Positions 9,399-61,788 of a stretch of 64,000 bases of DNA are shown here, in pieces. The stretch lies in the NCBI GenBank assembly GCA_030835135.1, contig JAUQWO010000070.1:23548-87547 (forward strand), read 5' to 3'. Every line of letters starts with the position of its first letter. The stretch's first letter is position 1. The notes under the pieces were generated by a model, which saw nothing but the letters and a program-made list of their open reading frames with translations, was not told where the DNA came from and searched no databases. This DNA is from Bacteroidota bacterium. Its GTDB lineage: Bacteria; Bacteroidota; Ignavibacteria; UBA10030; UBA6906. The position numbers and the translations under genes were made by a program.

Positions 9399-9421
9399 GA
9401 GCCCGAGCATGCCTCGGGCTC
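9399..9421. terminator. hairpin between convergent genes
   Basis: Perfect 9-bp stem GAGCCCGAG/CTCGGGCTC, 5-nt loop, followed by TTGTGCTT. Confidence 0.55.
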
Positions 9422-9573
9422 TTGTGCTTCGTAAGCACCCACGTGGCCCGCATCCGCCCCTGACCCCGAGAACCCCGAACGTACCCTATGCGCCCCCTGA
9501 ATCCCTTCCCGAAGACTCTTCTGACCTCGTGAGACACCGCTTCCATCTCCCCATCCTGGAGACGTGATACCTG

Positions 9574-12326: not shown

Positions 12327-12523
12327 CGAGGCGAGGGCCTCCCGCAGATGGCTGTGACGTTTCACGAACTGAAGTGTCACGAACATGCCCGCCCCGTTGA
12401 TTCTCCCTTCCATCCACTGTATCTTCACCAGTGTATCAGGGGTTCCTTCCATATCTGTTCTGAGTGCCCCCCGTTCCCATGGTGACATGGTTCGAGGGGC
12501 TGCACTTTGCGGAGATCGTTCTT

Positions 12524-18714: not shown

Positions 18715-18771
18715 ACGCCTCCTCCTCTTCTTCTTCCCGTGCAGGATGAACCTTTGCTTCTCTCTCCGTGT

Positions 18772-18793
18772 TAACGTAGCATAGGCTACATTT
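18772..18793. promoter_or_regulatory. MntR box
   Basis: TAACGTAGC-ATAG-GCTACATTT matches the 22-bp E. coli MntR palindrome AAACATAGC-N4-GCTATGTTT in geometry and in most bases; lies between the divergent receptor and mntR genes. Confidence 0.8.
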
Positions 18794-18833
18794 TGTTCCC
18801 ACGGTCGTGCATCCATACATGATGGAGGTCGTC

Positions 18834-19993: not shown

Positions 19994-22213
<2,220 letters not shown>

Positions 22214-44239: not shown

Positions 44240-44386
44240 GGCATGTCCGAAGGTGTGGGTGAGACGTCAGGTCAATATACGACATTCCTCCGAGCAGCGC
44301 CAGAGAGCGGGGATCCGGAGGCTCACCCGTTCTTTTGATCACGAGATTCCGTATCTTTGAGGAGACACTTTCCATCCGGACGTACC

Positions 44387-47074: not shown

Positions 47075-47216
47075 ATGTCCACCGCATGGTCCGTTGTCCC
47101 GGCACATCACCATGCGGTGCGTGACACGAAGCATGCCGGCGATGGCTGATGTTGTCCAGAGCGGGGCTACGCCACGCACGAGGACTCAGCGTTTCTTCCA
47201 GAGACAGGAGCATCGT

Positions 47217-48362
47217 ATGGGGTCACACAGGATCAGCGCTCTCCTTGCAGTGCTGCTCTGCCAGTCGCAGGCAACCACACAGACCCTTGACCTTCCGCCC
47301 CGCGCCGTGGACGCACTCTCCCGCGATGCGATCATCACATTGATCACCCCCCTCCCACGCGACGCACGAGAGGACACGCTGTTCCGGCTTGTCACGTCGG
47401 GCAACATCCCGGCATTCCTGCGAACGCTCGTCCCCATCACCGCCGCGGCCATGGTCAATGGTGTGGAACGCAGTCTGACATACTACGTCACGCCCGAGTA
47501 CCTGGCGGTCGGACCGGATGACCGTTCGTTCCTCATCCCGATGACCCCACTTCTGGCGCAACGCATCGCCGACGCACTCCACTGCACGCTCCCCACGCGC
47601 AAGATGGTGAACGATATCTATCGTGCTGCCCCGTTGAAGCTCGCCCCTTCACCGATCCCTCCCAGCGCTGCAATGATCACGGTACCGGTATTCGCCCAGC
47701 ACGACTCCATCGTGTGGGCCCAGAGGCAACCCGTTCTCGGCTCCTATCCTCATGGGACCTTGACGGGTGGGACGAAAAAGGACGTGGTGATCTCCAACAG
47801 GATCACGACCGATCTCAAGACAGGGGTGCCGAAGCCCGTGGTGATCTACGGATGGCATCAACTGAATGGAAGCGCGATCCAACCACTCTACAACGGTCAC
47901 GGAGAAACGTACGCGGATTACAGTCACGGGATACGGCTCGTTCACACTGCGGTGCTGCTGGATGGGGCTCCGACGACAGTGGGTGCGGTCCTGCAGGACA
48001 ACTTCTTGTCCACCCTACTGAGTGACGAAGGTGCGATCGCCCGGCCGCGATATGGAGACGCGCCGGCGGGTATCGGCACAGACCCCGATACCGGTGACCG
48101 CGGTTCGCTGATCGAAAGGGTCTATCCGAACCCATTCAACGCGTCAACCGAGATCCGCTACCGGCTCGCCTCCCAGGATATGGTCACGCTGAAGGTGTAC
48201 GACATGCTCGGGCGCGTGGCGGCGACACTTGTTGACGCAGCAGTGGAACCCGGAAACCACGAAGTGACCTTCGACGGGTCGGGGCTTGCAAGCGGTGTCT
48301 ATATCGTGCGCGTCAGCACAGGAAGGTCTGTCGAGAGCGGGAAGGTCATCCTCATGCGGTGA
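47217..48362 (+). CDS. T9SS-secreted protein with uncharacterised conserved domain
   Basis: CAGGAG RBS, signal peptide; motifs LPTRKMVNDIY, KKDVV, IYGWH...IQP, H..YADYSHG.RLV; VYPNPFNAST CTD. Confidence 0.78.
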   Translation: MGSHRISALLAVLLCQSQATTQTLDLPPRAVDALSRDAIITLITPLPRDAREDTLFRLVTSGNIPAFLRTLVPITAAAMVNGVERSLTYYVTPEYLAVGPDDRSFLIPMTPLLAQRIADALHCTLPTRKMVNDIYRAAPLKLAPSPIPPSAAMITVPVFAQHDSIVWAQRQPVLGSYPHGTLTGGTKKDVVISNRITTDLKTGVPKPVVIYGWHQLNGSAIQPLYNGHGETYADYSHGIRLVHTAVLLDGAPTTVGAVLQDNFLSTLLSDEGAIARPRYGDAPAGIGTDPDTGDRGSLIERVYPNPFNASTEIRYRLASQDMVTLKVYDMLGRVAATLVDAAVEPGNHEVTFDGSGLASGVYIVRVSTGRSVESGKVILMR

Positions 48363-48463: not shown

Positions 48464-51013
48464 TCATCGCGAGCGATCCTGCGGATGCACCGGGTCGGGT
48501 TCGATCCAGGGGAGGAGGATCTCGATGATCCGTTTCGAGAATGCTCCGCGGGGATGGTTCACGCGCATCGAATTGAGGACCACCGAGAGGCTGCTCGCGA
48601 CCATCGCACCCGCGGCCACCAGGGGGTTCATCAGCCCGGAGACTGCGAGGGCGATCCCGATCGTATTGTACAGGAATGCCCAGGCAAGGTTTTGTTTCAT
48701 GATCCGGGTGCCCCGGCGGGCGATCTCGACCGCCTCCGGGATCAGCGTCAGGTCGTCGCGTAGGAGCGTGACCGGCGCCGCATGGATCGCCATCTCCGTC
48801 CCTCCGCCCATGGCGATACCAACGTCCGCCTGAGCCAGAGCCGGCGCATCGTTCACCCCATCGCCCACCATCACCACCCTCTTCCCCTGCTGCTGCAGAT
48901 GCGAGATCATTGCGATCTTCCCCGCCGGCAGAGCGCCCGCCGCGAACTCCCCGATACCCGCCTGTCCCGCGATCGCAGCCGTGGTGGCCTGCATGTCGCC
49001 CGAAAGCAGTTGCACCTCCACCCCGAGGGCCCCGAGTCGTTCCACCGCGGGCCGCGCGCTCGGTTTGAGAGAATCGCCCAGCACGAATGCAACAGGTGAC
49101 CCTCCAGGAGCGATCGCACCGTACACGACCGTCTTTCCTGACGCGGCGGCACGGACAGCCGCCTCTTCGGTCGCCGGCGCGGGACGGATCCCACTGCTTT
49201 CCAGGAATGCTCGTGAGCCAAGAATGATGTTGTTCCCCTCGACCGTCCCACGGATCCCCTGTCCATCAACGATCGTCACATCGGTCGCGGAGGCAAGCGT
49301 GAGCCGGTGCTTGCGCGCCACCCTGATGATCGCCTGCGCGACGGGATGACTCGAGGCCTGCTCGAGGGATGCCGCAAGACGAAGGAGGTCGCCGGTTTCC
49401 GGCGTCACACCATGGATCTCGTCGCAGTCAAAGTTCCCCGCCGTGAGCGTCCCGGTCTTGTCGAACACCGCCGCAGACGCTGATCCGAGGACCTCCAGAA
49501 CCATCCCGTCGCGGACGAGGATACCGCGGCGTGCAGCGTGGCCGATGCCCGCGGCGATCGCCAGAGGCGTTGCCATGCCCAGGACGCACGGGCAGGCGAT
49601 AAGGAGAACCGTGATCGCACGAAGGATGGATGCTTCCATGCCCGCACCGAGAGCGAACATCACGAGACCCGTGATCACCGACACGACGAGGACGCCGGGA
49701 ATGAACACGCGCGACACCCTGTCCACCATCCGTTCGAGGTCCGACTTGCTGGCCAGGGCGCCCTCGACCATGCGGATGATCGACGAGAGGATGGTGTCCT
49801 TTCCGCACGCATCGACACGGACCTCCATGATGCCGTTGACGTTCATGGAAGAAGCCAGCACCTTCGCTCCCTCGCACTTCTTCACGAGACGGGATTCACC
49901 GGTGAGCAACGATTCATCCACGACGCCACCTCCGACCACCACGGTACCGTCCGCAGGGATCTTCTCACCCGATCGCACGACGAAGATCTCCCCGGGCTGG
50001 AGCTTTTCGGTGGAGATCAGCCGTTCTCCCTCCGGGGCTTTCACGCGCACCTTCTTCGGCATCATGGTATACAGCCTGTGCACACCTTCCGACGCCCGGT
50101 GTTTCGCGCTCACCTCGATCAGTTTTCCGACCAGGAGAAGGGCCACCAGCCCGCCAGACGTGTCGAAGTAGAAGTTCCCGCCGCCGGTCAGCAGTTGGTG
50201 TACGCTGAAGAAGAATGCCGAGAATATCCCGATCGAGAAAAGGAGTTCCATCGTGGGGACGCCGCCCCGGAGGCTGCGGAAGGCCTTGCGGTGGATGGGC
50301 ATGCCACACCAGAAGACCGACGGAAGCGCGAAACCGAACAGGATCCACGGGAACATCGCCGTGATCGCGGGAGGGAGGTCCTGGAAGTACCCTACGTACA
50401 GCGTGTAGCTGAAGAACATCAGGTTGTTCATCAGGAAAAGGGCGATGCCCATCCTGAGGAGGAGCGAGCGCCGCTCGGCGGACCGCTCACCGGGGTCAGC
50501 ATCACGTTCCGTCGCCGCGTAGCCGAGATCAGCGATCCTCTGGCGGATGTGCTCCGCGGAGACCTGTGCCGGCCGGAAGACGACCTTCGCGGTGTCGGAT
50601 GCATACAACACGTTTGCCCGCACCACACCCGGTTCCGCCCCGATCACCTTCTCGATGAGCCAGGAACAGGACGAACACCACATGCCATCCACGTGGAGCA
50701 CGAGTTCGTCCCCGTCCTCCGGCATGTGCTCCTCCGCGGGCGCCACAACCTCATCCGTGACGGGCTTGCCGATGATGCCAAGACGCAGACTGGTCTGATA
50801 GAGGTCGGACGACCGGAAGTCACCCCCGAGCAGCCCGCTTTCGGCCAGGATGAGGAACACCTGACGGCATCCGGCACAGCAGAAGCGATAGTCGTTGCCA
50901 CGCCACTCTGCGTCGTGCGCATGCCGCGACAACGGCAGCGCACAGAGGTCGCATGCGGTGCCTGTCTCAGATCGGACAGTCGGGGCAACCGGGGAGAGGG
51001 ACGTGGTGTTCAT
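48464..51013 (-). CDS. ccoI: heavy-metal P1B-type ATPase (CcoI/FixI-like Cu transporter)
   Basis: N-terminal CDLC and FCCAGC, HMA GMWCSSC, TGES, CPC, DKTGT, GDGVND; at the end of the cbb3 operon. Confidence 0.9.
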   Translation of the reverse strand: MNTTSLSPVAPTVRSETGTACDLCALPLSRHAHDAEWRGNDYRFCCAGCRQVFLILAESGLLGGDFRSSDLYQTSLRLGIIGKPVTDEVVAPAEEHMPEDGDELVLHVDGMWCSSCSWLIEKVIGAEPGVVRANVLYASDTAKVVFRPAQVSAEHIRQRIADLGYAATERDADPGERSAERRSLLLRMGIALFLMNNLMFFSYTLYVGYFQDLPPAITAMFPWILFGFALPSVFWCGMPIHRKAFRSLRGGVPTMELLFSIGIFSAFFFSVHQLLTGGGNFYFDTSGGLVALLLVGKLIEVSAKHRASEGVHRLYTMMPKKVRVKAPEGERLISTEKLQPGEIFVVRSGEKIPADGTVVVGGGVVDESLLTGESRLVKKCEGAKVLASSMNVNGIMEVRVDACGKDTILSSIIRMVEGALASKSDLERMVDRVSRVFIPGVLVVSVITGLVMFALGAGMEASILRAITVLLIACPCVLGMATPLAIAAGIGHAARRGILVRDGMVLEVLGSASAAVFDKTGTLTAGNFDCDEIHGVTPETGDLLRLAASLEQASSHPVAQAIIRVARKHRLTLASATDVTIVDGQGIRGTVEGNNIILGSRAFLESSGIRPAPATEEAAVRAAASGKTVVYGAIAPGGSPVAFVLGDSLKPSARPAVERLGALGVEVQLLSGDMQATTAAIAGQAGIGEFAAGALPAGKIAMISHLQQQGKRVVMVGDGVNDAPALAQADVGIAMGGGTEMAIHAAPVTLLRDDLTLIPEAVEIARRGTRIMKQNLAWAFLYNTIGIALAVSGLMNPLVAAGAMVASSLSVVLNSMRVNHPRGAFSKRIIEILLPWIEPDPVHPQDRSR

Positions 51014-51025
51014 GCCTGTGGGCGC

Positions 51026-51151
51026 CTACTTTGCGAGGATCTTTCCATCCTCGTACTTCACCTCGTGGATGGGCGTGCGGACCGCGATCACTGCCATGAG
51101 CACGAGGATCGCGATGAAGACCGCGAGCGTGGCATAGATGCTTTTCTTCAT
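51026..51151 (-). CDS. 41-aa single-TM small protein (not in ORF track)
   Basis: MKKSIYATLAVFIAILVLMAVIAVRTPIHEVKYEDGKILAK*; ATG overlaps the ccoG stop (ATGA) and the stop lies 12 nt before the ATPase start. Confidence 0.7.
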   Translation of the reverse strand: MKKSIYATLAVFIAILVLMAVIAVRTPIHEVKYEDGKILAK

Positions 51152-52488
51152 TGCAGGGCCTTTGTCGATGAACCGCTTCCGGATATATCACTCTCCGGCA
51201 TGAAGAACACGATATCCGTCGTCGCATGGATCTCCGGATGCTCCGTACTTGTCGCCGTCAGCTGCAGACGGTTCGGACCCGGCCGCAATCGATGCACGGG
51301 GAGGTACAAACGCATCGTCGTTGCCCGGACCTCGCGCGATGACAGCGGGAACGGATTCCTGTCCAACGCTACCGCGCAGTCATGCGAGGGTGCTGCATCG
51401 GCGCCGCTGCAGGTAAGCAGGACGACGTCGTCGCTGAGACTGCGGTTACTGATCTTGATCGCATATTCATTGTACACGCGTCCATCATCCGTCACATGAT
51501 ACAGCGTCGACCGGTCACCGCTTGCAGTGAGAGAGAGCGGCATGCGGCCCTGAATGACGAACACCAGGACCAGTGCATACACCACCGTCAGGGCCAGGAC
51601 GCCCCAGCGCTTCGCATCGACGAAGCCAAGCTTCTCATACCACCGCATGCGGGGCCCGCCTTTCTCACCCCACGAGAACGCAATGAGGGTCGGTAGCGGG
51701 GTCTTGAGCCGGGACAGGATCGCCGTACAGGAGTCCACGCAGTCGCCGCAATGGGTGCATTCCGTCTGGTAGGGCGACTGGCGGATGTCGATGCCCATCG
51801 GACAATCGCGCACACACGCTTTGCATTCGATGCATTCGCCGTGCCGCTCCGTCGCATAACGGACGATCTGTGTCTTGCTGTCGGTGAAGACCGCCTGCAA
51901 CATGCCATAGGGGCAGGTCTTTGTGCAGAACTTCTCACGCCAGAACATGACATCCACCCAGACCAGGAGGGCGATGCCAATGATGATGCCAACGGTCACG
52001 GACCCGAGGCTCAGTGCGGCGATCTCCCCGAGCATCCGGTAGGGATCCACGAAATATGCAACGAGATTGAATCCCACGAACACCGACAGGGCGAACATGG
52101 CAGTGCCCAGCAGCACGTGGTGCGCGAGCCACCGCACGATGCCCTGCCCCGTTTTCCGGCCGGCACCCGGCACCCGGAGCCAGCGCCGGCTCTTGCCCTC
52201 GAGCCAGTAGTACAGCTCGTCGAGCACGGTCTGCGGACACATCCATCCGCACCATACGCGTCCATAAACCATCGCAAAGATCACGATGATCCAGAGAACG
52301 AGCATGATAACGAGGAACAGCAGATAGAACTCATCCACCCAGAGCACCGAGGTAAGGAAATAGAACCGCAGTGTGGGGATATCCAGGCGGAGGATGTTGA
52401 GGAACGGCAGGATGACGATCAGGAGTGTACTGAGCGTCTGGACGACCCGACGCTTGGCGCGGTACGTCGCAGGACTGGTGCGTGACAT
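51148..52488 (-). CDS. ccoG: cbb3 oxidase accessory ferredoxin-like protein CcoG/FixG
   Basis: CGWMCPQT, CTKTCPYG, CIECKAC...CP, CTHCGDC...C, C-terminal Ig-like domain. Confidence 0.9.
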   Translation of the reverse strand: MSRTSPATYRAKRRVVQTLSTLLIVILPFLNILRLDIPTLRFYFLTSVLWVDEFYLLFLVIMLVLWIIVIFAMVYGRVWCGWMCPQTVLDELYYWLEGKSRRWLRVPGAGRKTGQGIVRWLAHHVLLGTAMFALSVFVGFNLVAYFVDPYRMLGEIAALSLGSVTVGIIIGIALLVWVDVMFWREKFCTKTCPYGMLQAVFTDSKTQIVRYATERHGECIECKACVRDCPMGIDIRQSPYQTECTHCGDCVDSCTAILSRLKTPLPTLIAFSWGEKGGPRMRWYEKLGFVDAKRWGVLALTVVYALVLVFVIQGRMPLSLTASGDRSTLYHVTDDGRVYNEYAIKISNRSLSDDVVLLTCSGADAAPSHDCAVALDRNPFPLSSREVRATTMRLYLPVHRLRPGPNRLQLTATSTEHPEIHATTDIVFFMPESDISGSGSSTKALQ

Positions 52489-52563
52489 GGTATTCGGTCT
52501 CGGCTATGGTACAGCGTTGTCCGTCCGGCCCGCAACCGGGGCCGGACGGACAATGACACGGGA

Positions 52564-52755
52564 CTACTTTGCCTGCATCTGCTTCTGCAGCAGTTCCTGC
52601 TGCAGATCGTAGCTGGACTTCCAGTCCCAGTACGTGAAGAGATAGTAGATGCACACCGCGGTGATGACAACATACGCGAGCTTCAGGAACCACCCCGGTC
52701 CCTTCTTCTCATCCTGGAGGATGACCTCGTCATGCACATCGGTTGTCGCGCTCAT
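52564..52755 (-). CDS. heme-less CcoP N-terminal-like membrane peptide
   Basis: 63 aa; acidic N-terminus then PGWF..AYVVITAVCIYY TM helix; ATGA overlap with ccoO; no CxxCH. Confidence 0.7.
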   Translation of the reverse strand: MSATTDVHDEVILQDEKKGPGWFLKLAYVVITAVCIYYLFTYWDWKSSYDLQQELLQKQMQAK

Positions 52756-53399
52756 GGTGCCACCTCCTTCGCGGTCTGGGCCACAACCGGAGGTGCCTGC
52801 TGGAGTTCCGGATGCAGCATCTTATATTGTGCCACACCTTCTTCACGCCACTTGATGTTCGAACCGAGCTTCTGCAGATACGCAACAAGGGCGATCGCGT
52901 CAGGGGTCGGCTGGCCGGCCTTGGTGAAGAGCCAGGTGTACGAAGGCATGATCGAACCGGGCGACGTGCTGCGCGGATCGCGCAGGTGATTCAGGTGCCA
53001 GGTATTGTCGTACTTGCCGCCGACCCGCCCGAGGTCCGGACCGGTACGGCGCGTGCCGAGGAGGTGCGGCTTGTCGAACACATATTCACCCGGTTGTGAG
53101 GGTGGGGCCTGGATCAGGGCGCGGATCCCGAACCGTTTGAAGGTCTCCTCTTCACCCATCCCATAGCGCTGGGTCTCCTCCAGGAGACTGCGCACCTGCT
53201 GGGTGTGACAATAGACGCACCCTTCGCTGATATAGGTCTGCCGGCCCTGGAGTTCCAGCGCGGTATATGGTTTTGCATCCTTGCCGGGATCGTTCAGCGT
53301 CGGATCGCTCAGGGGGACCACCATCGTGAAGTATGAACCCAGGAACATGAACGCCGCCACTACCACGACAAGGAGGAACGCTTTCGCTTCGAGTTTCAT
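52752..53399 (-). CDS. ccoO: cbb3-type cytochrome c oxidase subunit II
   Basis: YTALELQGR.TYISEGCVYCHTQQVR, GTRRTGPDL.RVGG, SIMPSY. Confidence 0.95.
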   Translation of the reverse strand: MKLEAKAFLLVVVVAAFMFLGSYFTMVVPLSDPTLNDPGKDAKPYTALELQGRQTYISEGCVYCHTQQVRSLLEETQRYGMGEEETFKRFGIRALIQAPPSQPGEYVFDKPHLLGTRRTGPDLGRVGGKYDNTWHLNHLRDPRSTSPGSIMPSYTWLFTKAGQPTPDAIALVAYLQKLGSNIKWREEGVAQYKMLHPELQQAPPVVAQTAKEVAP

Positions 53400-53413
53400 G
53401 GTCTTGTCTCCTC

Positions 53414-54757
53414 TCAGGCCACTGCCGGTTGAACGCGTGCGGACGCTCCGCGCACGGTCTTGAAGATGTTATAGGCGAAGATCACCTGGGCCGTCACCAT
53501 CAGGATGGCGGAGAACATGCGCACCATGTAATATGGGAACATCGCCTTCACCGTGTCCAGGAATGCGATCGTGGGGTCCATCCACTGCAGGCCCTGGACG
53601 AATCCTCCGATCCACAGGCTGATCGCAAAGCCGAGGAATCCGACGAACGAGAGCCAGAAGTGCCATTCTGCGAGCTTGGCAGAGAAGAGGTCGGTCTTCA
53701 GGATCTTCGGCAGGGCGAAGTAGATGCCACCGATCGCAAAGAACGTAAAGGCGCCGAACACCGCCATGTGCGCATGACCCACGATCCAGTCGGTCTTGCT
53801 GACGATCATGTTCACGGTGCGCAGGGAGTGCATCGGGCCCTGGAAGCACGTGAGCAGGTAGAAGGTCGTCCCGGCGATGAAGAACTTCACCACATAGTTG
53901 CCGCTGGCCCACTTCCCGCGCAGGGTGCCATAGAAATTCGTCACGGCGGTCCACACCGGGATCAGGAGCGAGATACTGAACAGGATGGCGACCGTCTGGA
54001 GCCACACCGGAATGGGGCCAAAGATGATATGGTGCGCGCCGTTCCAGATGTACAGGAACGCGATCGTCCAGAAGCCGATGAGCGACAGCTTGTGGCTATA
54101 CAGCGGATTGCCGGTGGACTTCGGGATGAAATAGTATGCGATCGCGAGGCCGACCGGTGTGAAGATGAGGCCGACCGCATTGTGGCCGAACCACCAGTTC
54201 ACGTTCGCATCGTTCACGCCGGAATACACGGGCAGGTTCGCCACGATCCAGAGAATCGCCGTCCAGAGGAGTGTGCCCATGATATACCAGAGACTGGCGT
54301 ACATGTTGGCATGCCTCCGCCTGGCGATCGTCATGAAGATGTTCAGCCCGAACATCACCCACGCGATCGTCACCAGGATGTCCAGCCACACATTGAGTTC
54401 GAGATATTCCCGTGCCTGGGTGTCGCCGGCGGCCAGCGTCACCACCGCACCCAGGAGGACCACGACCCAGACCCCGAGGGTCGCGAGCCCGAGCTTCTCA
54501 CTCCAGAGTTTCACGCCCGCAAGGCGCGGGACGATATAGAAGCACAGGCCCATATCGGCGGCGAGGAGCCAGCCAAAGAGGACGCCGTTGGTGTGGATCA
54601 CGCGAATGCGTCCGACACCCAGTGCTGCAATGCCACCGAGGAACTCGGGGGCGACGAACTTGATCGCCATGATCAGGCCGATCAGGATCGTCACAAGGAA
54701 GAACGTGATGGCGGTGTAGAGAAACCACCTCGCGCTCTTGTCTACATGTTGTTCCAT
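53414..54757 (-). CDS. ccoN: cbb3-type cytochrome c oxidase subunit I
   Basis: HTNGV, WWFGHNAVG, LYIWNGAHH, TDWIVGHAH heme/CuB ligands; 12-TM pattern. Confidence 0.95.
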   Translation of the reverse strand: MEQHVDKSARWFLYTAITFFLVTILIGLIMAIKFVAPEFLGGIAALGVGRIRVIHTNGVLFGWLLAADMGLCFYIVPRLAGVKLWSEKLGLATLGVWVVVLLGAVVTLAAGDTQAREYLELNVWLDILVTIAWVMFGLNIFMTIARRRHANMYASLWYIMGTLLWTAILWIVANLPVYSGVNDANVNWWFGHNAVGLIFTPVGLAIAYYFIPKSTGNPLYSHKLSLIGFWTIAFLYIWNGAHHIIFGPIPVWLQTVAILFSISLLIPVWTAVTNFYGTLRGKWASGNYVVKFFIAGTTFYLLTCFQGPMHSLRTVNMIVSKTDWIVGHAHMAVFGAFTFFAIGGIYFALPKILKTDLFSAKLAEWHFWLSFVGFLGFAISLWIGGFVQGLQWMDPTIAFLDTVKAMFPYYMVRMFSAILMVTAQVIFAYNIFKTVRGASARVQPAVA

Positions 54758-54837
54758 TCTACTGCTCCTTTGATTGATGGTGGCTCACCCGCCCACGATC
54801 CCTCTGCACATGGTTCGTACTGCTTACTGATCCACTC

Positions 54838-55638
54838 TTAGTGCTGCTCCGTCTTCTCTCGCTCCGCGCGCCCGCACGCACGCAGATACGAGATCACGCT
54901 CCACCGCTCCACCTCCGTCAGCACCCCCACCCACGGCTGCATCGAGGTCCCCGGGACGCCATTGCTGATCGAATCGAACAGCCTGCTCTCCGCCAGATAG
55001 TCGATGAACGGCCTCTCCCCCCACGACACCACCGCCACGAGGTTGCGCGGACGCGGGGCCAGACTCTCGGCCAGACGTCCGAACCCATCGCCCCGCGCAC
55101 CGTGACAGCTTGCACAATAGGCAAGCCACACACCCTTGCCCTGCGCCTCGGCCGCCGCGGTGTCCGCAAGCGGATTCACGGCATCGGCGGGCACCCGCAC
55201 CGACATAATGCCATTGGGGATCGGGAGCTGGTCACCCGCCGTGAGAGACCGGATGTAATGGATCGCCTCCCAGCGCTTGTCGGCGGTGATCATGAGTTCG
55301 AAGGCCGGCATCGCGGTGCCGCGCACCCCGCCGGAAATGGACCCGTACATGCGTTCATCCGTGAGGTACGCGACGAACGGTGCATTCCGGAGATTCTGGG
55401 GGCGAGGATCGAGATTCATCGACTGGGGGCCCCGGCCATCGGCACGACGTCCATGGCATCCGGCACAATATTCAAAGAACACTGCCTTCCCCGCGGCGAT
55501 GGACTCCGGTGTCGATGTCGGTGCCTTCATCGGACCCTCTTGCCCCGCGGCCTGCATGAACATCAGTGCAAGGAGGACGACCCCGGGAAGAATGAAGACC
55601 CGGGCCACGGTGGCGCTGCTCCTGTTCGAAAGCTTCAT
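54838..55638 (-). CDS. exported diheme cytochrome c
   Basis: Two class-I domains, CAGCH...AMP and CASCH...SMQ; N-terminal hydrophobic helix. Start ATG 55638. Confidence 0.88.
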   Translation of the reverse strand: MKLSNRSSATVARVFILPGVVLLALMFMQAAGQEGPMKAPTSTPESIAAGKAVFFEYCAGCHGRRADGRGPQSMNLDPRPQNLRNAPFVAYLTDERMYGSISGGVRGTAMPAFELMITADKRWEAIHYIRSLTAGDQLPIPNGIMSVRVPADAVNPLADTAAAEAQGKGVWLAYCASCHGARGDGFGRLAESLAPRPRNLVAVVSWGERPFIDYLAESRLFDSISNGVPGTSMQPWVGVLTEVERWSVISYLRACGRAEREKTEQH

Positions 55639-55733
55639 CGGTTCGCCTTTGTGAATGCTGTTCTTCTGAAGACCACGAATGACCCTCTTCGCTGCCCGGT
55701 GTGCCTCGCCTGACATGATCCGTGCACGCAGGG

Positions 55734-56843
55734 TCAGTGTGTCGCGCCGGCCGAATCAGGCACGGCGTACACCACCGCGTTGTCCACCGTCAGCGTCTTC
55801 AACGTGCTCAGGTACAACGCGATGGCCTCAAGTTCGGTCGCGGCATACTTGAGATCGGGCATGACCGAACCACCCACCAGCGAACGCGGATTGAGATGAT
55901 GCTGCACCATCCATTCCTTCGTCCGCTGCAGCCCGATCACGCTGAGGTCCGGTCCGGTCTTCCCACCGACCCCGTTGATCGTATGACAGGCATCGCAGTA
56001 TTTGTCCGCGAAGGCCCGCTTCCCGGCCTCGACGGTCACGGGGACGTCCTTCGGACGCTCGGCACGCCATGCCTTGATCGCATTGTACCGTTCGACCGGT
56101 CCGTTCATCAGGTTCTCGCCGGTGAGGCTCTTCAGATAGATCACCAGGGCCTTCACCTCCTCCGGCGACAGGTCCATCTTCGGCATGATCGACTCGAAAT
56201 TGTTGGCCTTCGGGACCACGATCGATTCTTCGAGATAGGCAAGAGGCCACTTCGCGCCCACGCGGGTCAATTCCACCCCGAGCTTTCCATCCGACACGCC
56301 CTCGATCTTGTGGCAGCCGTAGCATGCCTTGGTGAAAAAGAGCCTCGCGCCCAGGGCGAGGTGCGGGGTCTCGGCGAGCGTAACGCCGTGACACTTCGCA
56401 CAACCCGACTCGATGTCGGCCCCTTTCAGGAGGGGTTCCATCCAGAACTTTGTGGTGCCGTGGGCGTCATCGGTGGCCAGTCCGCGGCCGTTGCCGTCAT
56501 GACATGTCGTGCACCCGAAGGTCCGGTACGGGTGGTTCCCGGGGATCGTCGGATGGGTCCGCAACGGTTGTGGCGCATCACTGAACCGCGCGTCATCGAT
56601 ACCGGCGTGGCAGGTCATGCAGCGGTCCACCCGTTGCTTGCCGAACCCGGTCACCACGAGCTGCTCGATGACGGGTGTGCGTTGTTCGAGCACCGCCCGC
56701 GTCTGCGGGTCCGTGGTCTTCTCGATCGCCAGCGCGAGATATTGCTTCTGGTAGGCCCGCCACTCGGTGTCGTAATTGCGGTAGATGATGAATGCATTGC
56801 CCAGGAGGAGCAGCACGGCGCCCGTGAGCAACGCTCTCTTCAT
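55734..56843 (-). CDS. membrane-anchored pentaheme cytochrome c
   Basis: Five CxxCH: CMTCH, CTTCH, CAKCH, CYGCH, CDACH; the last two are followed by SIMP and SVMP Met ligands; N-terminal TM. Start ATG 56843. Confidence 0.9.
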   Translation of the reverse strand: MKRALLTGAVLLLLGNAFIIYRNYDTEWRAYQKQYLALAIEKTTDPQTRAVLEQRTPVIEQLVVTGFGKQRVDRCMTCHAGIDDARFSDAPQPLRTHPTIPGNHPYRTFGCTTCHDGNGRGLATDDAHGTTKFWMEPLLKGADIESGCAKCHGVTLAETPHLALGARLFFTKACYGCHKIEGVSDGKLGVELTRVGAKWPLAYLEESIVVPKANNFESIMPKMDLSPEEVKALVIYLKSLTGENLMNGPVERYNAIKAWRAERPKDVPVTVEAGKRAFADKYCDACHTINGVGGKTGPDLSVIGLQRTKEWMVQHHLNPRSLVGGSVMPDLKYAATELEAIALYLSTLKTLTVDNAVVYAVPDSAGATH

Positions 56844-56886
56844 GGTGTTTCCGATACGCATCGCAGTCTCTTTCCTGATGATCGGC

Positions 56887-57420
56887 CTAGTGACCGGTGG
56901 TTGCTTCCCATGGCAGAACGAATCCCCAGTTCGGCCCGCGGAAGTACATGCCGATGATGATAAGAATGACCATCACAACGAGGAAGGTCAGGAACAAGCC
57001 GTTCGCGAGCCACCGCTCTCTGGCGAACCACACCCCGATGCCGACCCTCTTGCGGTCGATATACGGCACCAGCATGAGTCCCAGGACGATCACGGTGGGC
57101 ACCAGCACGCCGCCAACGAACGCGGAATAGCTCACCAGCTCCTGCAGGCCGAGGAAATACCACGGGGCTTTGGCCGGATTCGGCGGAGAATTCGGATTGG
57201 CGATCTCTTCGAGCGGCGCATCGATGAGAAAGGCGGCACCCAGGAGGCATGCGGCGACGACAAGGAAGATCACCAGCTCGCGCACGAGCAGATGCGGCCA
57301 CGCGTACACCGTATCTTCATCGAGGCCGACCGTGGGCCTGGTCCCCTTGACGAGTTCCATCAGCCCATAGGTCTTCCGGGGATCACGGGGGTATACCTGG
57401 GTGGTATCGACGTCCTTCAT
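56887..57420 (-). CDS. petD: cytochrome b C-terminal subunit (subunit IV-like)
   Basis: WPHLLVRE, APLEE.ANP, PAKAPWYFLGLQELV, PYID; start ATG 57420, 4 nt after the petB stop. Confidence 0.85.
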   Translation of the reverse strand: MKDVDTTQVYPRDPRKTYGLMELVKGTRPTVGLDEDTVYAWPHLLVRELVIFLVVAACLLGAAFLIDAPLEEIANPNSPPNPAKAPWYFLGLQELVSYSAFVGGVLVPTVIVLGLMLVPYIDRKRVGIGVWFARERWLANGLFLTFLVVMVILIIIGMYFRGPNWGFVLPWEATTGH

Positions 57421-57424
57421 GGCC

Positions 57425-58201
57425 TCACTCCTTGATCGCAGGTGTGTCATTGTCGGCGGGGTGCGACAGCCCCCCATCCTTCCGTATCCGCCAGAAATGG
57501 ACCGCGAGGAAGATGGAGAGCAACCCCGGGAGGATCACCACATGCAGCACATAGAACCGGATCAGCGCCTCCTGCCCCACGCTGTCGGAGCCCAGCAGGA
57601 AGCGGCGCAGCGGCTCCCCCACCACCGGTGCATAGCCCGCGATCGAGGTCCCGACCGTGATGGCCCAGAACGCCAATTGGTCCCACGGGAGCAGATACCC
57701 CGTGAACGACAGTCCGAGCGTCAGCAGCAGAAGGATGATCCCGATGATCCAGTTGAACTCACGGGGCGGTTTATAAGCCCCGGTGAAGAACACCCGTGCC
57801 ATATGGAGGACGACGAAGAAGACCATCGCTTCGGCCGCCCACTTGTGCACGTTCCTCAGCACGAACCCGAAATCCACCGCCGACCGGAGGTCGAGCATGC
57901 GGCCGTAGGCCTCGGTGGCGGAGGGGAAATAGTAGAACATGAGCCAGACGCCGGTGAAGGTCAGGAACACGAACAGGCACGTCGCGATCACCCCGAGGCC
58001 GAACGTGTACGTGAAGCGCAGCGAGTGCTTCGCGACCTTCACGGGATGGATGTGCAGGAACAGACTGTTGAACACCGCATAGGATGCCCCTTCACCATCG
58101 CGGGGCAGGCGGCCATACCGGAAGATCGACCGGTAGACCGATTCGAAGAACATCCCGACCGCGGTGCGCTTGTCGGGCGTGGGAGTGGGCGCTTGCATCA
58201 T
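57425..58201 (-). CDS. petB: cytochrome b6-like subunit
   Basis: Four heme His (VHKW, LHMARV, LHVV, VHFW), [14 protein letters not shown]; 14-residue His spacing in helix D. Confidence 0.92.
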
Positions 58202-58246
58202 CTGTATTCCGGCTTGTGAAATGGGTTGCAGCAGGTGGCCCCGCGC

Positions 58247-58723
58247 TCACACGCGGAGATACGTTCCCGCGGGGATCTTCACGTTCTTGTCGACTTCCAG
58301 TTCGCCGTTGGGTGCGATGCTCACCTGATACCACGCCAGAGGCGAGGGCGCCGGACCGCCGGTCACGAACCCGTCGTTGTCGAACTGACTGCCATGACAC
58401 GGGCATTCGAACCCGCCTTCGGTCGCCCGGACCGTGCAACCGAGATGGGTGCACGTGACGGAGATCGCGGCGAATCCTTCCTTCTCCCGGACCACCACGA
58501 CGCGTTCGTTCTCCCGGGTCTCCTTGATGCCGACGGTGTATTCATCCGGACGTCCGACGCGGATGCGCGTGGGCGGGCCGTAGTCCACGGCAGGTTTCAG
58601 GTACATCAGATTACCGAGCACGCCGACCGCGCCCGATAATCCGACGCCGAGCCAGCCCAGCGTGCTCAGGAATGTCCGCCGGTCGATCTCCGGCTGCTGC
58701 ATACGTGTGGGTTTCTTTTTCAC
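58247..58723 (-). CDS. petC: Rieske 2Fe-2S subunit
   Basis: Tat motif DRRTFL, CTHLGC and CPCHGS; GTG start after GGGAG (alternative ATG 58702). Confidence 0.92.
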
Positions 58724-58773
58724 GGTGCACTCCCGTTTGGGTTTCGGTGTGGAACAGACAGGGTGACCCGAAC

Positions 58774-58799
58774 GCCCGCCGCTCCCCTGAACGGCGGGC
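58774..58799. other. intercistronic GC hairpin
   Basis: 8-bp stem GCCCGCCG/CGGCGGGC between ccoS and the Rieske gene, no U-tract on the coding strand. Confidence 0.5.
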
Positions 58800-58806
58800 C
58801 TCCGGT

Positions 58807-58950
58807 TCAATCGTCGTCGCGCAGCATCTGGTACTTCGGCTCTTCCACGTTCTTGAACTGGTTCGTCTTCGCGGCGTACACGAACCCGAGCGCGAAGATG
58901 ATGCCGAGGACGACGCTCAGAAAGACAAGGAAATACAGGGAGACGAGCAT
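58807..58950 (-). CDS. ccoS: cbb3 maturation protein CcoS/FixS
   Basis: 47 aa, TM helix then [18 protein letters not shown]; AGGAG RBS. Confidence 0.82.
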
Positions 58951-58958
58951 GACCGCTC

Positions 58959-60857
58959 CTATCTGGTTTCGATCGACAACTGGTGCGCGCACGTGAAGTG
59001 CTCCATCGTGATCGCGCCCGTGGGACAACGCTTCGCGCAGAAGCCGCACCGTACACAGAGCTCTTCATCCTTCAGCATGGCCGACCCGAGGGTCCGGAGG
59101 GCCTCCGGTCCGGCGCCGGCCGCAAGGCCCTCTGCGTCCGCTCCATAGCGCTCCACCAGCGCCAGCTCGAGCCGCGGCTCGCGGACGATCTGCGAGAGTG
59201 GCACCAGGGCGAGGCAGTAGGTCGGACACACATCCACACATCCCGCGCACAGGATGCACGCATCACCATTGAAGATGGTGTTGATATGGCATTTCAGGCA
59301 GCGGCTCCCCTGTTCCCCCGCTACGCCCGGATCGAAGCACTTCTCGACCAGGGCATCGGAGGACGCGCGCCCCTGCGGATTCAGTGCGGGTGGGTCGGAG
59401 CGCTCGATCTGCAGATAGGCATCACGCATGGTGTGCGACGGAGCGGGCATGGTGAATGTCCCGGTCCGCACTTCGTGCAGGGAACCCTCCCGCAGATACT
59501 CATCGATCGAGACCACGGCGCGCTGCGCGGATGCAACAGCGTGAATGAACAGCCGTGCGCCCTCCGCAACATCACCACAGGCAAAGATCCCGGGGATGGT
59601 CGTCGCCTTGGTCGTCGGATCGATCTTGATGATACCACCGGGGGTGAGTTCAAGCGCGGACTCACCCGCCGTGAAGCCGGGATCCACGGTCTGACCGATG
59701 GAGAGCATCACGGTGCTCGCCGGGATGACCTCCCCGGGCTCGTCGGCATACACCGGAGCGAATCGCCCCTGCGCATCGAACACCGACAGGACCTTGCGCG
59801 TCGCCAGACCGGTGACGTGGCCATTGCTCCCCACGATCTCCAGAGGTCCGCGGGAGGGGTGCACGATCACGCCTTCTTCTTCGCCTTCGGTGATCTCGAT
59901 CTCATCCGCGGGCATTTCGTCGCGCGATTCGAGGCACACCAGGTGCACGTGCTTGGCACCGTGACGCAGGGCCTGCCGTGATGCATCGGCGGCCTCGTAG
60001 AAATCCTGGGATTCGGCACGGAACACCCCGCCGATGCGGACCGCGGAGCGGGCCACGTCGAACGCCACGTTGCCGCCGCCAATGACGACGACGGAGTCAC
60101 CGAGCGTGATGTTACCGCCGGAGTTGAGGGTCTTCAGAAAATCGATGCCGTGGACAACGCCATGGAGGTCGGAGCCCTTGATCCGGAGATCACGCCCACG
60201 TTGCAGGCCGGCGGCGATGAGGATCGCAGCGAATCCATCCCTGCGGAGTTCTTGGAGCGTAACGTGCTCGCCGATCCGGGTGTTCAGGCGCAACTGTACG
60301 CCCAGCCCGAGGATGGCGTTGATCTCTGCCTGGACGAGGTCGCGGGGGAGCCGGTAGGTCGGCACGCCCGTCATCAACATGCCGCCCGCCACGCGGCCGG
60401 CTTCGAACACGGTGACCTGGTAGCCGAGCAGAGCAAGGTCATGCGCAGCGGTCATCCCCGCCACCCCGGAACCGACAACGGCAACGCGCGTCCCGGCTTT
60501 CGGGTTCAGAGGATCACGGCGTGCGGTCGAGTGACGGAGGGTCGCCCTGGGATCGCCGGCTTCCGCGCCATAACGTTCCGTCACGAAGCGCTTGAGCGCG
60601 CGGATCGTCACCGGATCGTCGATGCTCCCCCGCCGGCATTCCATTTCACACGGTGCCCCACACACGCGTCCGCAGATGGATGCGAAGGGATTCGGACCAC
60701 GCGCGATCGCATACGCCTCTTCGTACCTGCCCTCGGCGATGGCGATGACATAGCCACGGGCATCGGTGTGCACCGGGCAACCCCACTGACACTTCACCTG
60801 ACGCTGCCAGTAGGTGACGTCCGGGATCTCTACGTTGAATGAGCGCTGTGTCGACAT
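58959..60857 (-). CDS. GltD/NfnB-like FAD/Fe-S NAD(P)H oxidoreductase with C-terminal 2x[4Fe-4S] ferredoxin
   Basis: [43 protein letters not shown]; [24 protein letters not shown]. Start ATG 60857, 4 nt after the Rrf2 stop. Confidence 0.9.
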
Positions 60858-60861
60858 GGCT

Positions 60862-61332
60862 TCAATCAGTTGGTGTGGAGGACTGATCCCTCGTGCCGAT
60901 GAGGTCCTTGTACGCCCGCTTGTTGGTCGTTGCTTCTGCTGCCAGGCTCGTAAGTGTGCGGGCAGCCAGGTGATTCCGGAGTTTCTGTTGGGCTTCCATC
61001 CAGACGGTATGGACGGGACACCAACCGTCACGGGGACAGATCTTCTCGCCCATGAGGCACTGATTCAGGGAGATCGGCCCTTCCACCGACTCGATGATCT
61101 CCAGAAGCGTGATCATGTCGGCATCACCACTCATCTGGATACCACCGCCGACACCTCGCTGGGTATTGATGAGTCCTGACCGGGAAAGGCTCGAGACGAT
61201 CTTGCGAAGGAACGTCTGTGGTATCTCCCACTCCGCCGCGATGTTCGAGACGTTCGTCGTGGTTCCGGGCGGCAGGCTCGCGAGATGCAGCATCGTTCGT
61301 ACCGCGTATTCTGAAGCTTGAGTAATCTGCAT
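60862..61332 (-). CDS. Rrf2-family Fe-S transcriptional regulator (IscR/NsrR-like)
   Basis: MQITQASEYAVR, RGVGGG, ITLLEIIESVEG, C-x6-C-x5-C-x2-H cluster ligands. Start ATG 61332. Confidence 0.92.
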   Translation of the reverse strand: MQITQASEYAVRTMLHLASLPPGTTTNVSNIAAEWEIPQTFLRKIVSSLSRSGLINTQRGVGGGIQMSGDADMITLLEIIESVEGPISLNQCLMGEKICPRDGWCPVHTVWMEAQQKLRNHLAARTLTSLAAEATTNKRAYKDLIGTRDQSSTPTD

Positions 61333-61383
61333 GAAGGGATCACATCCGTGTAGGTGATCTACTAATGTGCAAGACATATGCCA

Positions 61384-61408
61384 ATAGAAGAGTCTTTTTG
61401 TCTTATAT
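61384..61408. promoter_or_regulatory. IscR-type-1-like operator A
   Basis: ATA-GAA-GAG-N7-GTC-TTA-TAT, 25 bp, same geometry as the IscR type 1 site ATA-N3-GAC-N7-GTC-N3-TAT. Confidence 0.6.
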
Positions 61409-61491
61409 ATAATTGCAGAATTTCCTCATTTTGCGGCACTTCTTGCCTGTGTTACCCATCTCTCATACTATGAAGATTCCTGAAATCAGGA

Positions 61492-61516
61492 AAAGGAGAC
61501 TTCTCTTGTCTTATTT
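61492..61516. promoter_or_regulatory. IscR-type-1-like operator B
   Basis: AAA-GGA-GAC-N7-GTC-TTA-TTT; shares the TTGTCTTAT half-site with operator A. Confidence 0.55.
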
Positions 61517-61544
61517 TCGGGAATCTGTCAATGAGCGTTACCAC

Positions 61545-61577
61545 TTCTCCCGGTGTCCTCAGAGGCGACCGGGAGAA
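61545..61577. terminator. hairpin downstream of the GNAT gene
   Basis: Perfect 10-bp stem TTCTCCCGGT/ACCGGGAGAA. Confidence 0.5.
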
Positions 61578-61788
61578 AGGAGCATGGAGCAACCCTCTTT
61601 GCCTGAAGATCGCCCGGTGTCCATCGCCGGCAACCCACACCGGCGGCGGGATCATCGTAACGACGCACGAGTTCTCACAGGTGAGAATCGTGCTGCGCGC
61701 AGCTTCTCGTTAAGGGACCGAGGGGGGTCGAAGTGTTGTATCAGAAGGGATGAAAGGGATGCGGAGAGAACGCCCGGCGGGCAGGAGA

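Follow-up and report, generated by a model that had tools for sequence, protein, structure and literature searches.

A Rieske/cytochrome b and cbb3 oxidase operon with an Fe-S flavoprotein from an Ignavibacteria genome: composition, recurrence and possible quinol bifurcation

How electrons pass between quinol, NAD and oxygen when the proteins for all these steps are encoded side by side is the question raised by a gene cluster in the 64,000-nucleotide (nt) stretch of contig JAUQWO010000070.1 analysed here (hereafter the window), which derives from assembly GCA_030835135.1 of a Bacteroidota bacterium placed in the Ignavibacteria. Its minus strand carries, from position 61332 down to 48464, a run of 14 consecutive genes, recognised by open reading frame (ORF) and Pfam analysis, that joins an Fe-S flavoprotein, a Rieske/cytochrome b complex, multihaem cytochromes and a cbb3-type oxidase. 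A preliminary description of this DNA had listed precisely this run, and all of its genes are present in the order it gave. The cluster is a real and widespread respiratory module, more general than that description could know. It is well supported that the operon serves O2 respiration as a single unit, both in its regulation and in its function, with electrons running from quinol through the Rieske protein and cytochrome b6 and over five plus two c-haems to CcoO and CcoN, and with copper supplied via CcoS, CcoG and CcoI. Our tentative reading, to which we give somewhat less than even weight, is that the operon encodes a quinol-bifurcating unit, in which one of the two electrons would reach O2 through cbb3 and the second would reduce NAD+.

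The operon and its recurrence in other genomes

The 14 genes are, in the order of transcription (aa, amino acids; TM, transmembrane; TAT, twin-arginine translocation):

60862..61332, minus strand: Rrf2-family regulator with a C-x6-C-x5-C motif (Pfam Rrf2 5.6e-34)
58959..60857, minus strand: Fe-S flavoprotein, 632 aa (Pfam Fer4_20, Pyr_redox_2, Fer4)
58807..58950, minus strand: CcoS/FixS, a maturation factor of cbb3 oxidases, 47 aa with a single TM helix (Pfam FixS 7e-12, which exceeds the cut-off; TIGR00847 5e-4)
58247..58702, minus strand: Rieske [2Fe-2S] protein with TAT signal/anchor (Pfam Rieske 2.6e-12; boxes CTHLGC and CPCHGSQF)
57425..58201, minus strand: cytochrome b6, four TM helices (Pfam Cytochrome_B 8e-47; NCBIfam ExtP 272 bits, cut-off 290)
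56887..57420, minus strand: subunit IV, three TM helices (Pfam Cytochrom_B_C 2e-6; NCBIfam ExtQ 2e-26, just under cut-off)
55734..56861, minus strand: pentahaem cytochrome c, membrane-anchored, five CXXCH (motif count)
54838..55716, minus strand: dihaem cytochrome c, membrane-anchored, two CXXCH (Pfam Cytochrome_CBB3, twice)
53414..54757, minus strand: CcoN, catalytic subunit of a C-family (cbb3) haem-copper oxidase (COX1 2.8e-92)
52752..53399, minus strand: CcoO, monohaem (one CXXCH), N-terminal anchor (FixO 4.3e-48)
52564..52755, minus strand: 63-aa single-TM protein, ATGA overlap with ccoO
51148..52488, minus strand: CcoG/FixG, membrane 2x[4Fe-4S] protein, cbb3 copper-handling accessory (Fer4_18, FixG_C, Fer4_5; TIGR02745 1e-67)
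51026..51151, minus strand: 41-aa single-TM peptide in the interval between ccoG and the ATPase gene (no family match)
48464..51013, minus strand: CcoI-type P1B copper ATPase (E1-E2_ATPase 1e-49, HMA, ATPase-cat_bd; TIGR01511 2e-142)

With the starts that we prefer for the Rieske protein (58702, TAT motif RRTFL), subunit IV (57420), the flavoprotein (60857) and the Rrf2 protein (61332), the recomputed junctions span -4 to 104 nt, and two of them are ATGA overlaps:

First half: Rrf2 to flavoprotein 4 nt; flavoprotein to ccoS 8; ccoS to Rieske 104; Rieske to b6 45; b6 to subunit IV 4; subunit IV to pentahaem c 25
Second half: pentahaem c to dihaem c 17 nt; dihaem c to ccoN 80; ccoN to ccoO 14; ccoO to 63-aa gene -4; 63-aa gene to ccoG 75; ccoG to 41-aa gene -4; 41-aa gene to ATPase 12

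These values agree with the tight packing and interleaved modules reported in the preliminary description, which had also placed ccoS among the bc genes, where the 47-aa FixS gene (7e-12) indeed lies between those of the flavoprotein and the Rieske protein. ORF listing does not show it separately, as it is nested in an 80-aa ORF with a GTG start (58807-59049), its Met start being at 58950; in the closest long contig, L083, gene calling likewise places a FixS gene of 47 aa here. Hydropathy gives a single anchor helix each for the Rieske, pentahaem, dihaem, CcoO, CcoS, 63-aa and 41-aa proteins, and the Rieske, pentahaem, dihaem, CcoO and 63-aa proteins consist of periplasmic domains and an anchor.

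For the pentahaem cytochrome 342 homologues were detected in 90% clusters, a profile retrieved 1,266 clusters (50% identity) at E <= 1e-30, and a scan of one genome per species yielded at least 565 confirmed relatives; the nearest relatives are metagenome proteins that are 92% identical. The loci of the best 80 of these at least 565 relatives, all from species-representative genomes, were compared by tblastn with all 14 window proteins and classed by the available flank, and it is to this set that the locus counts given here refer:

6 loci: ccoN present, flavoprotein upstream of Rieske (Ignavibacteria/Bacteroidota type and Planctomycetota L048)
36 loci: ccoN present, flavoprotein downstream of ccoO, between ccoO and ccoG (Acidobacteriota)
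5 loci: ccoN present, contig ends where the flavoprotein would be
24 loci: flavoprotein, Rieske, b and multihaem c in this order, ccoN absent over 3 kb or more (mostly 10 kb); Verrucomicrobiota, Acidobacteriaceae and Bryobacterales labels
8 loci: contig cut before the expected place of ccoN
1 locus (L080): no flavoprotein

The preliminary description had suggested a gene-neighbourhood search and had named a lack of co-occurrence elsewhere as the outcome that would speak against it. Co-occurrence proved to be strong, as ccoN and ccoO lie beside the Rieske/b6 genes in 47 of the 80 loci, in two gene orders. The six loci of the flavoprotein-first class reproduce the order of the window exactly, including ccoS between flavoprotein and Rieske. 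Both orders were also recovered by a search that started from the flavoprotein and used independent gene calls and precomputed Pfam assignments, on a 966-kb contig of the Bacteroidota type and a 217-kb contig of the Acidobacteriota. A midpoint-rooted neighbour-joining tree unites the cbb3-linked b6 sequences in a single 46-leaf clade, to which only three truncated contigs contribute further members. The interleaving, furthermore, has arisen twice and independently: in one order ccoS is found within the bc genes, in the other the flavoprotein gene within those for the oxidase and its assembly. A gene set that is found in dozens of species-level genomes is far beyond chance, and the double interleaving, the single origin of b6 and a cytochrome fusion described below speak for a partnership rather than mere adjacency. 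What appears to be new is that two known kinds of system, i.e., Rieske/b complexes bearing an NAD(P) oxidoreductase and superoperons of complexes III and IV, are combined in one cluster that is under-annotated; no description of the full gene composition was found in the searchable full-text literature, and older comparative papers may already mention it.

Two of the examined contigs, L081 and L082, were considered as a natural variant that lacks CcoO and the flavoprotein. This was rejected, since ccoN ends there at approximately residue 325 with ccoG immediately next to it, which marks a deletion. The decayed copy of the cluster, without ccoO and flavoprotein, lies at 11786-14123 in L081 and in L082 (host of P0103; neighbours PSCyt2, PSD1 and DUF1501), and because the P0103 protein occurs on 16 contigs the deletion seems to be real in that population.

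The redox proteins and their bearing on coupling

The Rieske protein retains both its CxHxGC and its CxCH box intact, and the serine of box II is invariant in all 75 loci in which this box could be read (75/75). This serine is a hydrogen-bond donor that raises the potential of the cluster. Cytochrome b is split into a four-helix b6 and a three-helix subunit IV, as judged by hydropathy. The b6 protein aligns with plant and cyanobacterial b6 in the PDB at 8e-49 and keeps all four histidine ligands of the haems; in the same alignment it lacks the haem cn cysteine, with Thr66 at the position of Cys35, and among the loci only L079 and L080 possess that cysteine. Its N-terminal n-side motif reads FLHIHPVKV, and the first histidine is invariant in all loci. 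In subunit IV the motif of the quinol-oxidising (Qo) site is APWY, not PEWY, and APWYF occurs in 78 of the 79 loci with a match to this subunit. Variants of PEWY occur in lineages that use menaquinol. In many cbb3-less loci (L047-L079, e.g., L056 at 8622-9908) b6 and subunit IV are fused into a protein of ~428 aa, and the cytochrome c is a hexahaem protein of 460-490 aa.

The place of cytochrome f or c1 is taken in the window by multihaem cytochromes. All five CXXCH motifs of the pentahaem protein are invariant in the alignment of its homologues. Its fifth haem domain (residues 301-357) matches the haem domain of CcoO (FixO 3e-12), and residues 301-341 match CcoO of solved cbb3 oxidases at 5e-10, which suggests that the cytochrome on the bc side and the oxidase subunit may share a common origin. 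The dihaem protein finds its best PDB match in 6h5l_B (3e-23), which we take to be the partner chain of a nitrite-reducing protein resembling hydroxylamine oxidoreductase (HAO). We considered it as a relocated CcoP and rejected this, because the match to CcoP (3mk7_C) reaches only 6e-5 versus 3e-23 to 6h5l_B; against the CcoP model it scores 37 bits, with a cut-off of 180. The penta- and dihaem proteins form a single heptahaem polypeptide in 39 of the cbb3-linked loci and are split in eight, whereas the cbb3-less loci carry a different, hexahaem cytochrome c. The presence of the dihaem module thus follows that of the oxidase, and yet the module is covalently joined to the bc cytochrome; this argues that it may serve as a bridge to the oxidase rather than as a classical CcoP. 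From this gene fusion and the co-evolution of the partners we infer that the bc part and the oxidase are probably coupled physically. Many relatives of 800-1000 aa retrieved by the profile search match the cytochrome only from approximately residue 200 onwards, suggesting further fusions. Relatives of the cluster also carry inside it a gene for a DsbD_2/DsbD_TM membrane protein with an HCxQMCGP motif, which in the Bacteroidota type separates the penta- and dihaem genes (L083, 15061-15777) and in Acidobacteria lies between flavoprotein and ccoG (L084, 12003-12725); the junction of the penta- and dihaem genes in the window measures only 17 nt, so that this gene is missing from the window operon.

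CcoN and CcoO score below the NCBIfam equivalog cut-offs (TIGR00780, 358.6 bits versus 583.15, and TIGR00781, 134.6 bits versus 200.65, respectively), and are therefore divergent, yet clearly belong to a C-type oxidase. CcoN keeps the motifs HTNG, WWFGHNAVG, YIWNGAHH and GHAH, i.e., the six histidine ligands of haem b, haem b3 and CuB and the helix-7 tyrosine beside the HH pair. It matches solved CcoN chains at ~1e-79 and NorB at 1e-16, and on these profile and PDB scores an assignment as nitric oxide (NO) reductase was rejected. Comparison with NCBIfam, Pfam and the PDB revealed no protein of the window operon that qualifies as CcoP or CcoQ. CcoP, as Ducluzeau is said to have noted in 2008, is not universal in non-proteobacterial cbb3 oxidases. 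Of the maturation genes ccoG, ccoI and ccoS are present and ccoH was not found in the operon; the copper ATPase has an HMA domain, a CPC motif and a metal-binding N-terminal domain of the FixI type, and in Acidobacteria a CcoS-like ORF follows ccoO.

The 63-aa protein, which has no family match, is probably a small oxidase subunit. It was tried as CcoQ and as a split N-terminal anchor of CcoP, and neither holds, as FixQ and FixP_N give no match even at E <= 10. It is conserved, with 49-67% identity in L001-L006 and a 63-aa gene at the same place in L083, and in Acidobacteria a homologous ORF of ~100 aa is present (GWITEKKGTEVPGFLK); the 63-aa gene that follows ccoO in L084 occupies the position of the CcoS-like ORF and is not its equivalent. 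At the position of the 41-aa peptide small ORFs of 43 aa (L083), 49 aa (L081) and 62 aa (L084) occur, and tblastn matches were obtained in L005 and L006.

The flavoprotein combines a core like that of NfnB and GltD, with N-terminal Fe-S cysteine motifs, FAD and an NAD(P)-binding Rossmann fold, with a C-terminal 2x[4Fe-4S] ferredoxin domain. Its sequence matches in the PDB are NfnB (4ylf_B, 1e-57), NfnI (5jca_L, 9e-54) and GltD (2vdc_G, 2e-51), and the core aligns with NfnB/GltD over its length, including the N-terminal cysteine motifs and both Rossmann folds. Unlike these proteins it adds the C-terminal ferredoxin domain and an insertion in the NAD domain, and family assignment of the 14 genes revealed neither an NfnA nor a GltB partner for it in the operon. 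It has no signal peptide, and its sole hydropathy peak is the cysteine-rich Fe-S motif; it thus has no real TM helix and is cytoplasmic. At the dinucleotide site the flavoprotein and all its relatives read V-C-L-E-S-R-x-E-M-P-A versus V-Y-R-R-T-x-x-E-M-P-A in the NADPH-dependent structures. Leu-Glu in place of the Arg-Arg pair that contacts the 2'-phosphate favours NAD(H) rather than NADP(H), and by the usual rule on acidic residues in Rossmann folds the cofactor would be NAD(H). The insertion (59703-60122, residues ~270-330) repeats an A-x-D-x-A-R helix motif, and its length ranges from ~0 to 60 aa across the family, being near zero in Planctomycetota L048.

Of the 72 loci with readable flanks, L080 alone lacks the flavoprotein. 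The 24 loci that combine it with Rieske/b and a hexahaem c, and that lack cbb3, place the flavoprotein and Rieske matches ~20-160 nt apart, mostly 30-60. As it is kept without the oxidase, the flavoprotein seems to be primarily a partner of the Rieske/b complex. The same 24 loci, which have neither cbb3 nor ccoG, rule out as its core role that of an electron donor to CcoG only. In public annotation its relatives are labelled 'FAD-dependent oxidoreductase', 'glutamate synthase beta-like' or 'formate dehydrogenase beta', names that hide the module.

Known relatives and the direction of electron flow

The closest parallel comes from anammox bacteria, and the preliminary description was right to state that an NAD(P) oxidoreductase accompanies their Rieske/cytochrome b complexes (PMC12954380). 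Kuenenia stuttgartiensis has two such b6-type complexes (Kuste4569-4574 and Kustd1480-1485), which also contain multihaem cytochromes; Kartal et al. (2013, as cited in PMC12954380) proposed for them a bifurcation at the Qo site, with a high-potential acceptor taking one electron and NAD(P)+ the second. The 2025 study reported potentials of +303 and +335 mV for the Kuenenia Rieske proteins, which fit NAD(P)+ reduction, as well as AlphaFold3 models with a path from haem over four Fe-S clusters to FAD, and found that all subunits co-migrate (PMC12954380). Compared by module list, the window shares with these complexes the Rieske protein, the four-helix b6, subunit IV, a multihaem c that substitutes for cytochrome f/c1 and a cytoplasmic FAD/NAD(P) oxidoreductase with an Fe-S chain. 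The potential-raising serine of the Rieske protein is shared as well, Kustd1480 likewise having Ser and not Tyr. In contrast, the exergonic partner in the window is a cbb3 O2 reductase and in anammox bacteria an HAO-like octahaem protein or an unknown acceptor; the window has 5+2 haems versus 6 or 8 and no HAO-like subunit, a subunit IV with three helices versus five and no haem cn cysteine, and its host is a heterotroph of the Fibrobacterota-Chlorobiota-Bacteroidota (FCB) type rather than an anammox planctomycete.

Other systems share parts of this composition. The ExtOPQS complex of Geobacter (Rieske ExtO, cytochrome b ExtP, membrane protein ExtQ and tetrahaem lipoprotein ExtS) is the closest curated hidden Markov model family for b6 and subunit IV of the window, and is likewise a b6-type complex with a multihaem partner, but the Ext cluster lacks a flavoprotein and an oxidase and is tied to outer-membrane or periplasmic cytochromes and to selenite and tellurite reduction (PMC5877670). 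The bc1-cbb3 supercomplexes of Rhodobacter capsulatus and Pseudomonas aeruginosa resemble the window in coupling a quinol:cytochrome c reductase to cbb3 via membrane-anchored c-haem domains (PMC7876108, PMC10556555), and the window proteins find some of their best solved relatives in CcoN and CcoO of PDB 6xkw and 8smr; the proteobacterial bc1 differs in having an unsplit cytochrome b, a monohaem c1, separate operons, links through CcoP and cytochrome cy, and no flavoprotein. Linked genes for quinol oxidation and a terminal oxidase, with a multi- or dihaem subunit in place of a soluble carrier, are also known from alternative complex III (ACIII)-caa3 of Bacteroidota and Acidobacteria and from actinobacterial bcc-aa3 with its dihaem QcrC (PMC8407424, PMC3362086), although these superoperons differ in the quinol-oxidising enzyme or in the oxidase family (A-type) and have no NAD-linked flavoprotein. 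For Acidobacteria superoperons of complexes III and IV have been described for caa3, and cbb3 operons as ccoN, ccoO and one further gene (PMC8407424; 10.1101/197269). Published expression values for acidobacterial cbb3, with very low TPM and a decrease at low O2, could not be linked to the type of cluster described here and carry no weight in this analysis. For cultured Ignavibacteria and relatives, published work reports ACIII in place of Rieske/b complexes, in agreement with the remark in the preliminary description that FCB bacteria often do so (PMC3362086, PMC6338057).

According to the reading that we tentatively prefer, the operon would encode a dedicated unit for microaerobic respiration under joint regulation, and menaquinol would be oxidised at the Qo site of its b6-type Rieske/cytochrome b complex. 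The high-potential branch would lead from the Rieske protein over the membrane-anchored pentahaem and dihaem cytochromes to a cbb3 oxidase without CcoP (CcoN, CcoO and the 63-aa subunit) and so to O2, and such direct entry of electrons into the oxidase would make it a hard-wired unit, probably a supercomplex. CcoS, CcoG, the 41-aa peptide and the copper ATPase would build the copper centre of the oxidase, and the Fe-S-type Rrf2 protein may switch the whole set on and off. The flavoprotein would dock on the n-side of cytochrome b; its co-occurrence with the Rieske/b genes and the anammox complexome point to a position on this cytoplasmic face. Through it the low-potential branch could run from haem bL to haem bH, over four Fe-S clusters to FAD and on to NAD+, so that the exergonic transfer from quinol to O2 would pay for the uphill transfer from quinol to NADH. 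With potentials of ~-70 mV for menaquinol, +820 mV for O2 and -320 mV for NAD+, the overall bifurcation is strongly downhill. In a heterotroph with complex I the presumable benefit is that half of the quinol electrons would be recycled, giving a higher H+/O ratio where O2 is scarce. In its widest form this proposal would be a hard-wired megacomplex for aerobic quinol-based bifurcation, in which O2 reduction drives the second electron uphill to NAD+ without use of the proton-motive force, widespread in Acidobacteriota, Bacteroidota/Ignavibacteriota and Planctomycetota and with a cbb3-less form in Verrucomicrobiota and Acidobacteriaceae; to this broader claim we attach only a rather low probability.

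The main competitor reverses the flavoprotein. Acting as an NADH dehydrogenase, it would feed the Fe-S chain and thereby haem bH and the quinone-reducing (Qi) site, and the operon would encode a self-contained NADH:O2 chain that bypasses complex I and allows a microaerophilic heterotroph with a mostly fermentative metabolism to scavenge O2 fast or to regenerate NAD+. The preliminary description had arrived at a similar proposal, a self-contained chain from NAD(P)H and quinol to O2. The composition that it presumed stands, but the direction from NADH to O2 is not established, the published reading for anammox bacteria being the opposite (quinol to NAD(P)H), and the Leu-Glu site points to NAD(H) and not to NADP(H). 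Every step of an NADH-fed chain would be thermodynamically downhill, a saccharolytic heterotroph with KatG (see below) would be a suitable host, an Fe-S Rrf2 regulator suits scavenging induced by O2 or stress, the Glu at the site where NADPH enzymes have Arg-Arg points to the catabolic carrier NADH, and cbb3 is often discussed as an O2-protection enzyme of anaerobes (PMC3362086). It would, however, leave the tie to cytochrome b rather than to quinone unexplained: a plain NADH dehydrogenase needs quinone alone, and the only resource that cytochrome b adds is the low-potential electron, which is one reason why we favour bifurcation. NADH electrons entering the b haems from the n-side should, by the logic of the Q-cycle, also hinder turnover of the Qo site, and an NADH-fed chain has no need for the invariant high-potential type of Rieske serine, which across the family fits the large gap between Rieske protein and quinol that bifurcation would exploit. 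For the homologous anammox complexes this direction was considered and disfavoured (PMC12954380). We regard the NADH-fed chain as somewhat less likely than bifurcation. Some points nevertheless weigh against bifurcation as well. Even for the anammox members the function is still a proposal, and without the haem cn cysteine and with a subunit IV of three instead of five helices, the electron path modelled for anammox may not transfer to the window. The histidine of the LHIHP motif, tried as a marker of flavoprotein docking or of an extra interfacial haem, failed as such because L080 has the motif without a flavoprotein, so that the motif is silent on docking. In a saccharolytic host NADH is expected to be plentiful and the need for quinol-derived NADH is not obvious, and internal promoters may be present in the 80-nt gap before ccoN or the 75-nt gap before ccoG.

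It is also conceivable that the modules are co-regulated and physically separate, the flavoprotein being a soluble ferredoxin/NAD oxidoreductase or a donor for CcoG-dependent copper reduction. The acidobacterial gene order, with ccoO on one side of the flavoprotein gene and the DsbD_2 gene and ccoG on the other, places it among assembly genes, its public annotation does not go beyond 'FAD-dependent oxidoreductase' or 'glutamate synthase beta-like', and superoperons of complexes III and IV without proven supercomplexes are common in Acidobacteria (PMC8407424). Yet the loci that keep flavoprotein and Rieske/b with no cbb3 or ccoG nearby (24) indicate that assembly is not its core function, the heptahaem fusion joins the bc cytochrome to the oxidase-associated dihaem module, the cbb3-linked b6 is monophyletic, and the anammox homologues co-migrate as a single complex (PMC12954380), and we hence consider separate modules improbable. 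Far less credible still is a unit against NO or nitrosative stress, with an NsrR-like Rrf2 repressor, a cbb3-type enzyme acting as NO reductase and a bc complex that supplies it with electrons. The Rrf2 protein scores alike for IscR (74 bits) and NsrR (72 bits), and the best solved relative of the dihaem c, 6h5l_B, is presumably a partner of a nitrite-reducing HAO-like protein. A side activity of cbb3 as NO reductase is known from work cited in PMC3362086. Against this, CcoN is of the C-family and not NOR (1e-79 versus 1e-16) with its Tyr-His motif kept, a full copper-delivery set of CcoS, CcoG and CcoI would be superfluous for an enzyme with Fe_B, and the Rrf2 protein stays under every subfamily cut-off.

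Until now, discussion has treated Rieske/b complexes with an NAD(P) oxidoreductase as an oddity of anammox bacteria, and the architecture is now seen to be common. The anammox proposal has been hard to probe because anammox bacteria are hard to grow and are not genetically manipulable, and their high-potential acceptor is uncertain; in one large clade described here the acceptor branch is defined, being cbb3 that reduces O2, which brings an open question of bioenergetics within reach of ordinary assays. Labels of metagenome-assembled genomes (MAGs) among the carriers name genera with cultured members, i.e., Paludibaculum, Holophaga, Chloracidobacterium and Terracidiphilus (by MAG label). Genes for a 'high-affinity oxidase' in MAGs from soil and sediment need to be reread, since the cbb3 oxidase here brings its own quinol oxidase and NAD link. 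Should the bifurcating megacomplex be real, it would represent a new mode of energy coupling in aerobic respiration and offer a tractable, O2-dependent system for a mechanism so far proposed only for anammox bacteria.

Regulator, boundaries and genomic setting

The Rrf2 protein that heads the operon is probably an Fe-S sensor. NCBIfam places it at the level of the rrf2 superfamily only, with IscR, NsrR and RirA all under cut-off. Its gene leads the cluster in loci of the Ignavibacteria type and in many acidobacterial loci, and is preceded in the window by a leader:

61333..61788, minus strand: non-coding leader, putative promoter/operator region (455 nt upstream of Rrf2; the GNAT gene ends at 61789)

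ORFs in this gap (61333-61788) have no Pfam match. It contains a 16-nt inverted repeat at 61545-61577 (88% complementary, 1-nt spacer), which could be a terminator of the GNAT gene that lacks a T-tract, or an operator. Scans for sigma-70 promoters and intrinsic terminators gave counts not above those of shuffled sequence, the terminator-like matches being all intragenic and promoters of the Bacteroidota type falling outside the scan, which is thus silent on internal promoters. Downstream the operon is bounded by a convergent plus-strand gene that ends at 48362. Antisense ORFs of 332-653 aa on the plus strand at 49538-51499, 53429-54841, 55722-56957 and 58983-59981, opposite the ATPase, ccoN, pentahaem and flavoprotein genes, are not genes; such shadow ORFs are expected in DNA of 62% GC.

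Directly upstream of Rrf2 in L083 (5283-9335) are a YeeE/YedE-type Sulf_transp gene, a SoxA/TsdA-like cytochrome and a fusion of rhodanese and metallo-beta-lactamase, all sulfur-related, unlike the GNAT and GFO/IDH/MocA genes that hold this position in the window. Elsewhere in the window a KatG-type catalase-peroxidase with two peroxidase domains (20021-22213, plus strand, 1.3e-72) is a further sign that the organism is exposed to oxygen. Two proteins, at 44357-47074 and 47094-48362 (both plus strand), carry C-terminal sorting domains of type IX secretion, one of them together with Golvesin_C, and SusC-like TonB receptors are encoded at 16438-18816 and 38853-41102 and a polysaccharide lyase and GH120-like genes at 5416-7788 and 12464-16315. 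Such type IX secretion, SusC and lyase or glycoside hydrolase genes are typical of saccharolytic bacteria of the Bacteroidota type, and from this gene content the host looks like a heterotroph that degrades sugars or polysaccharides.

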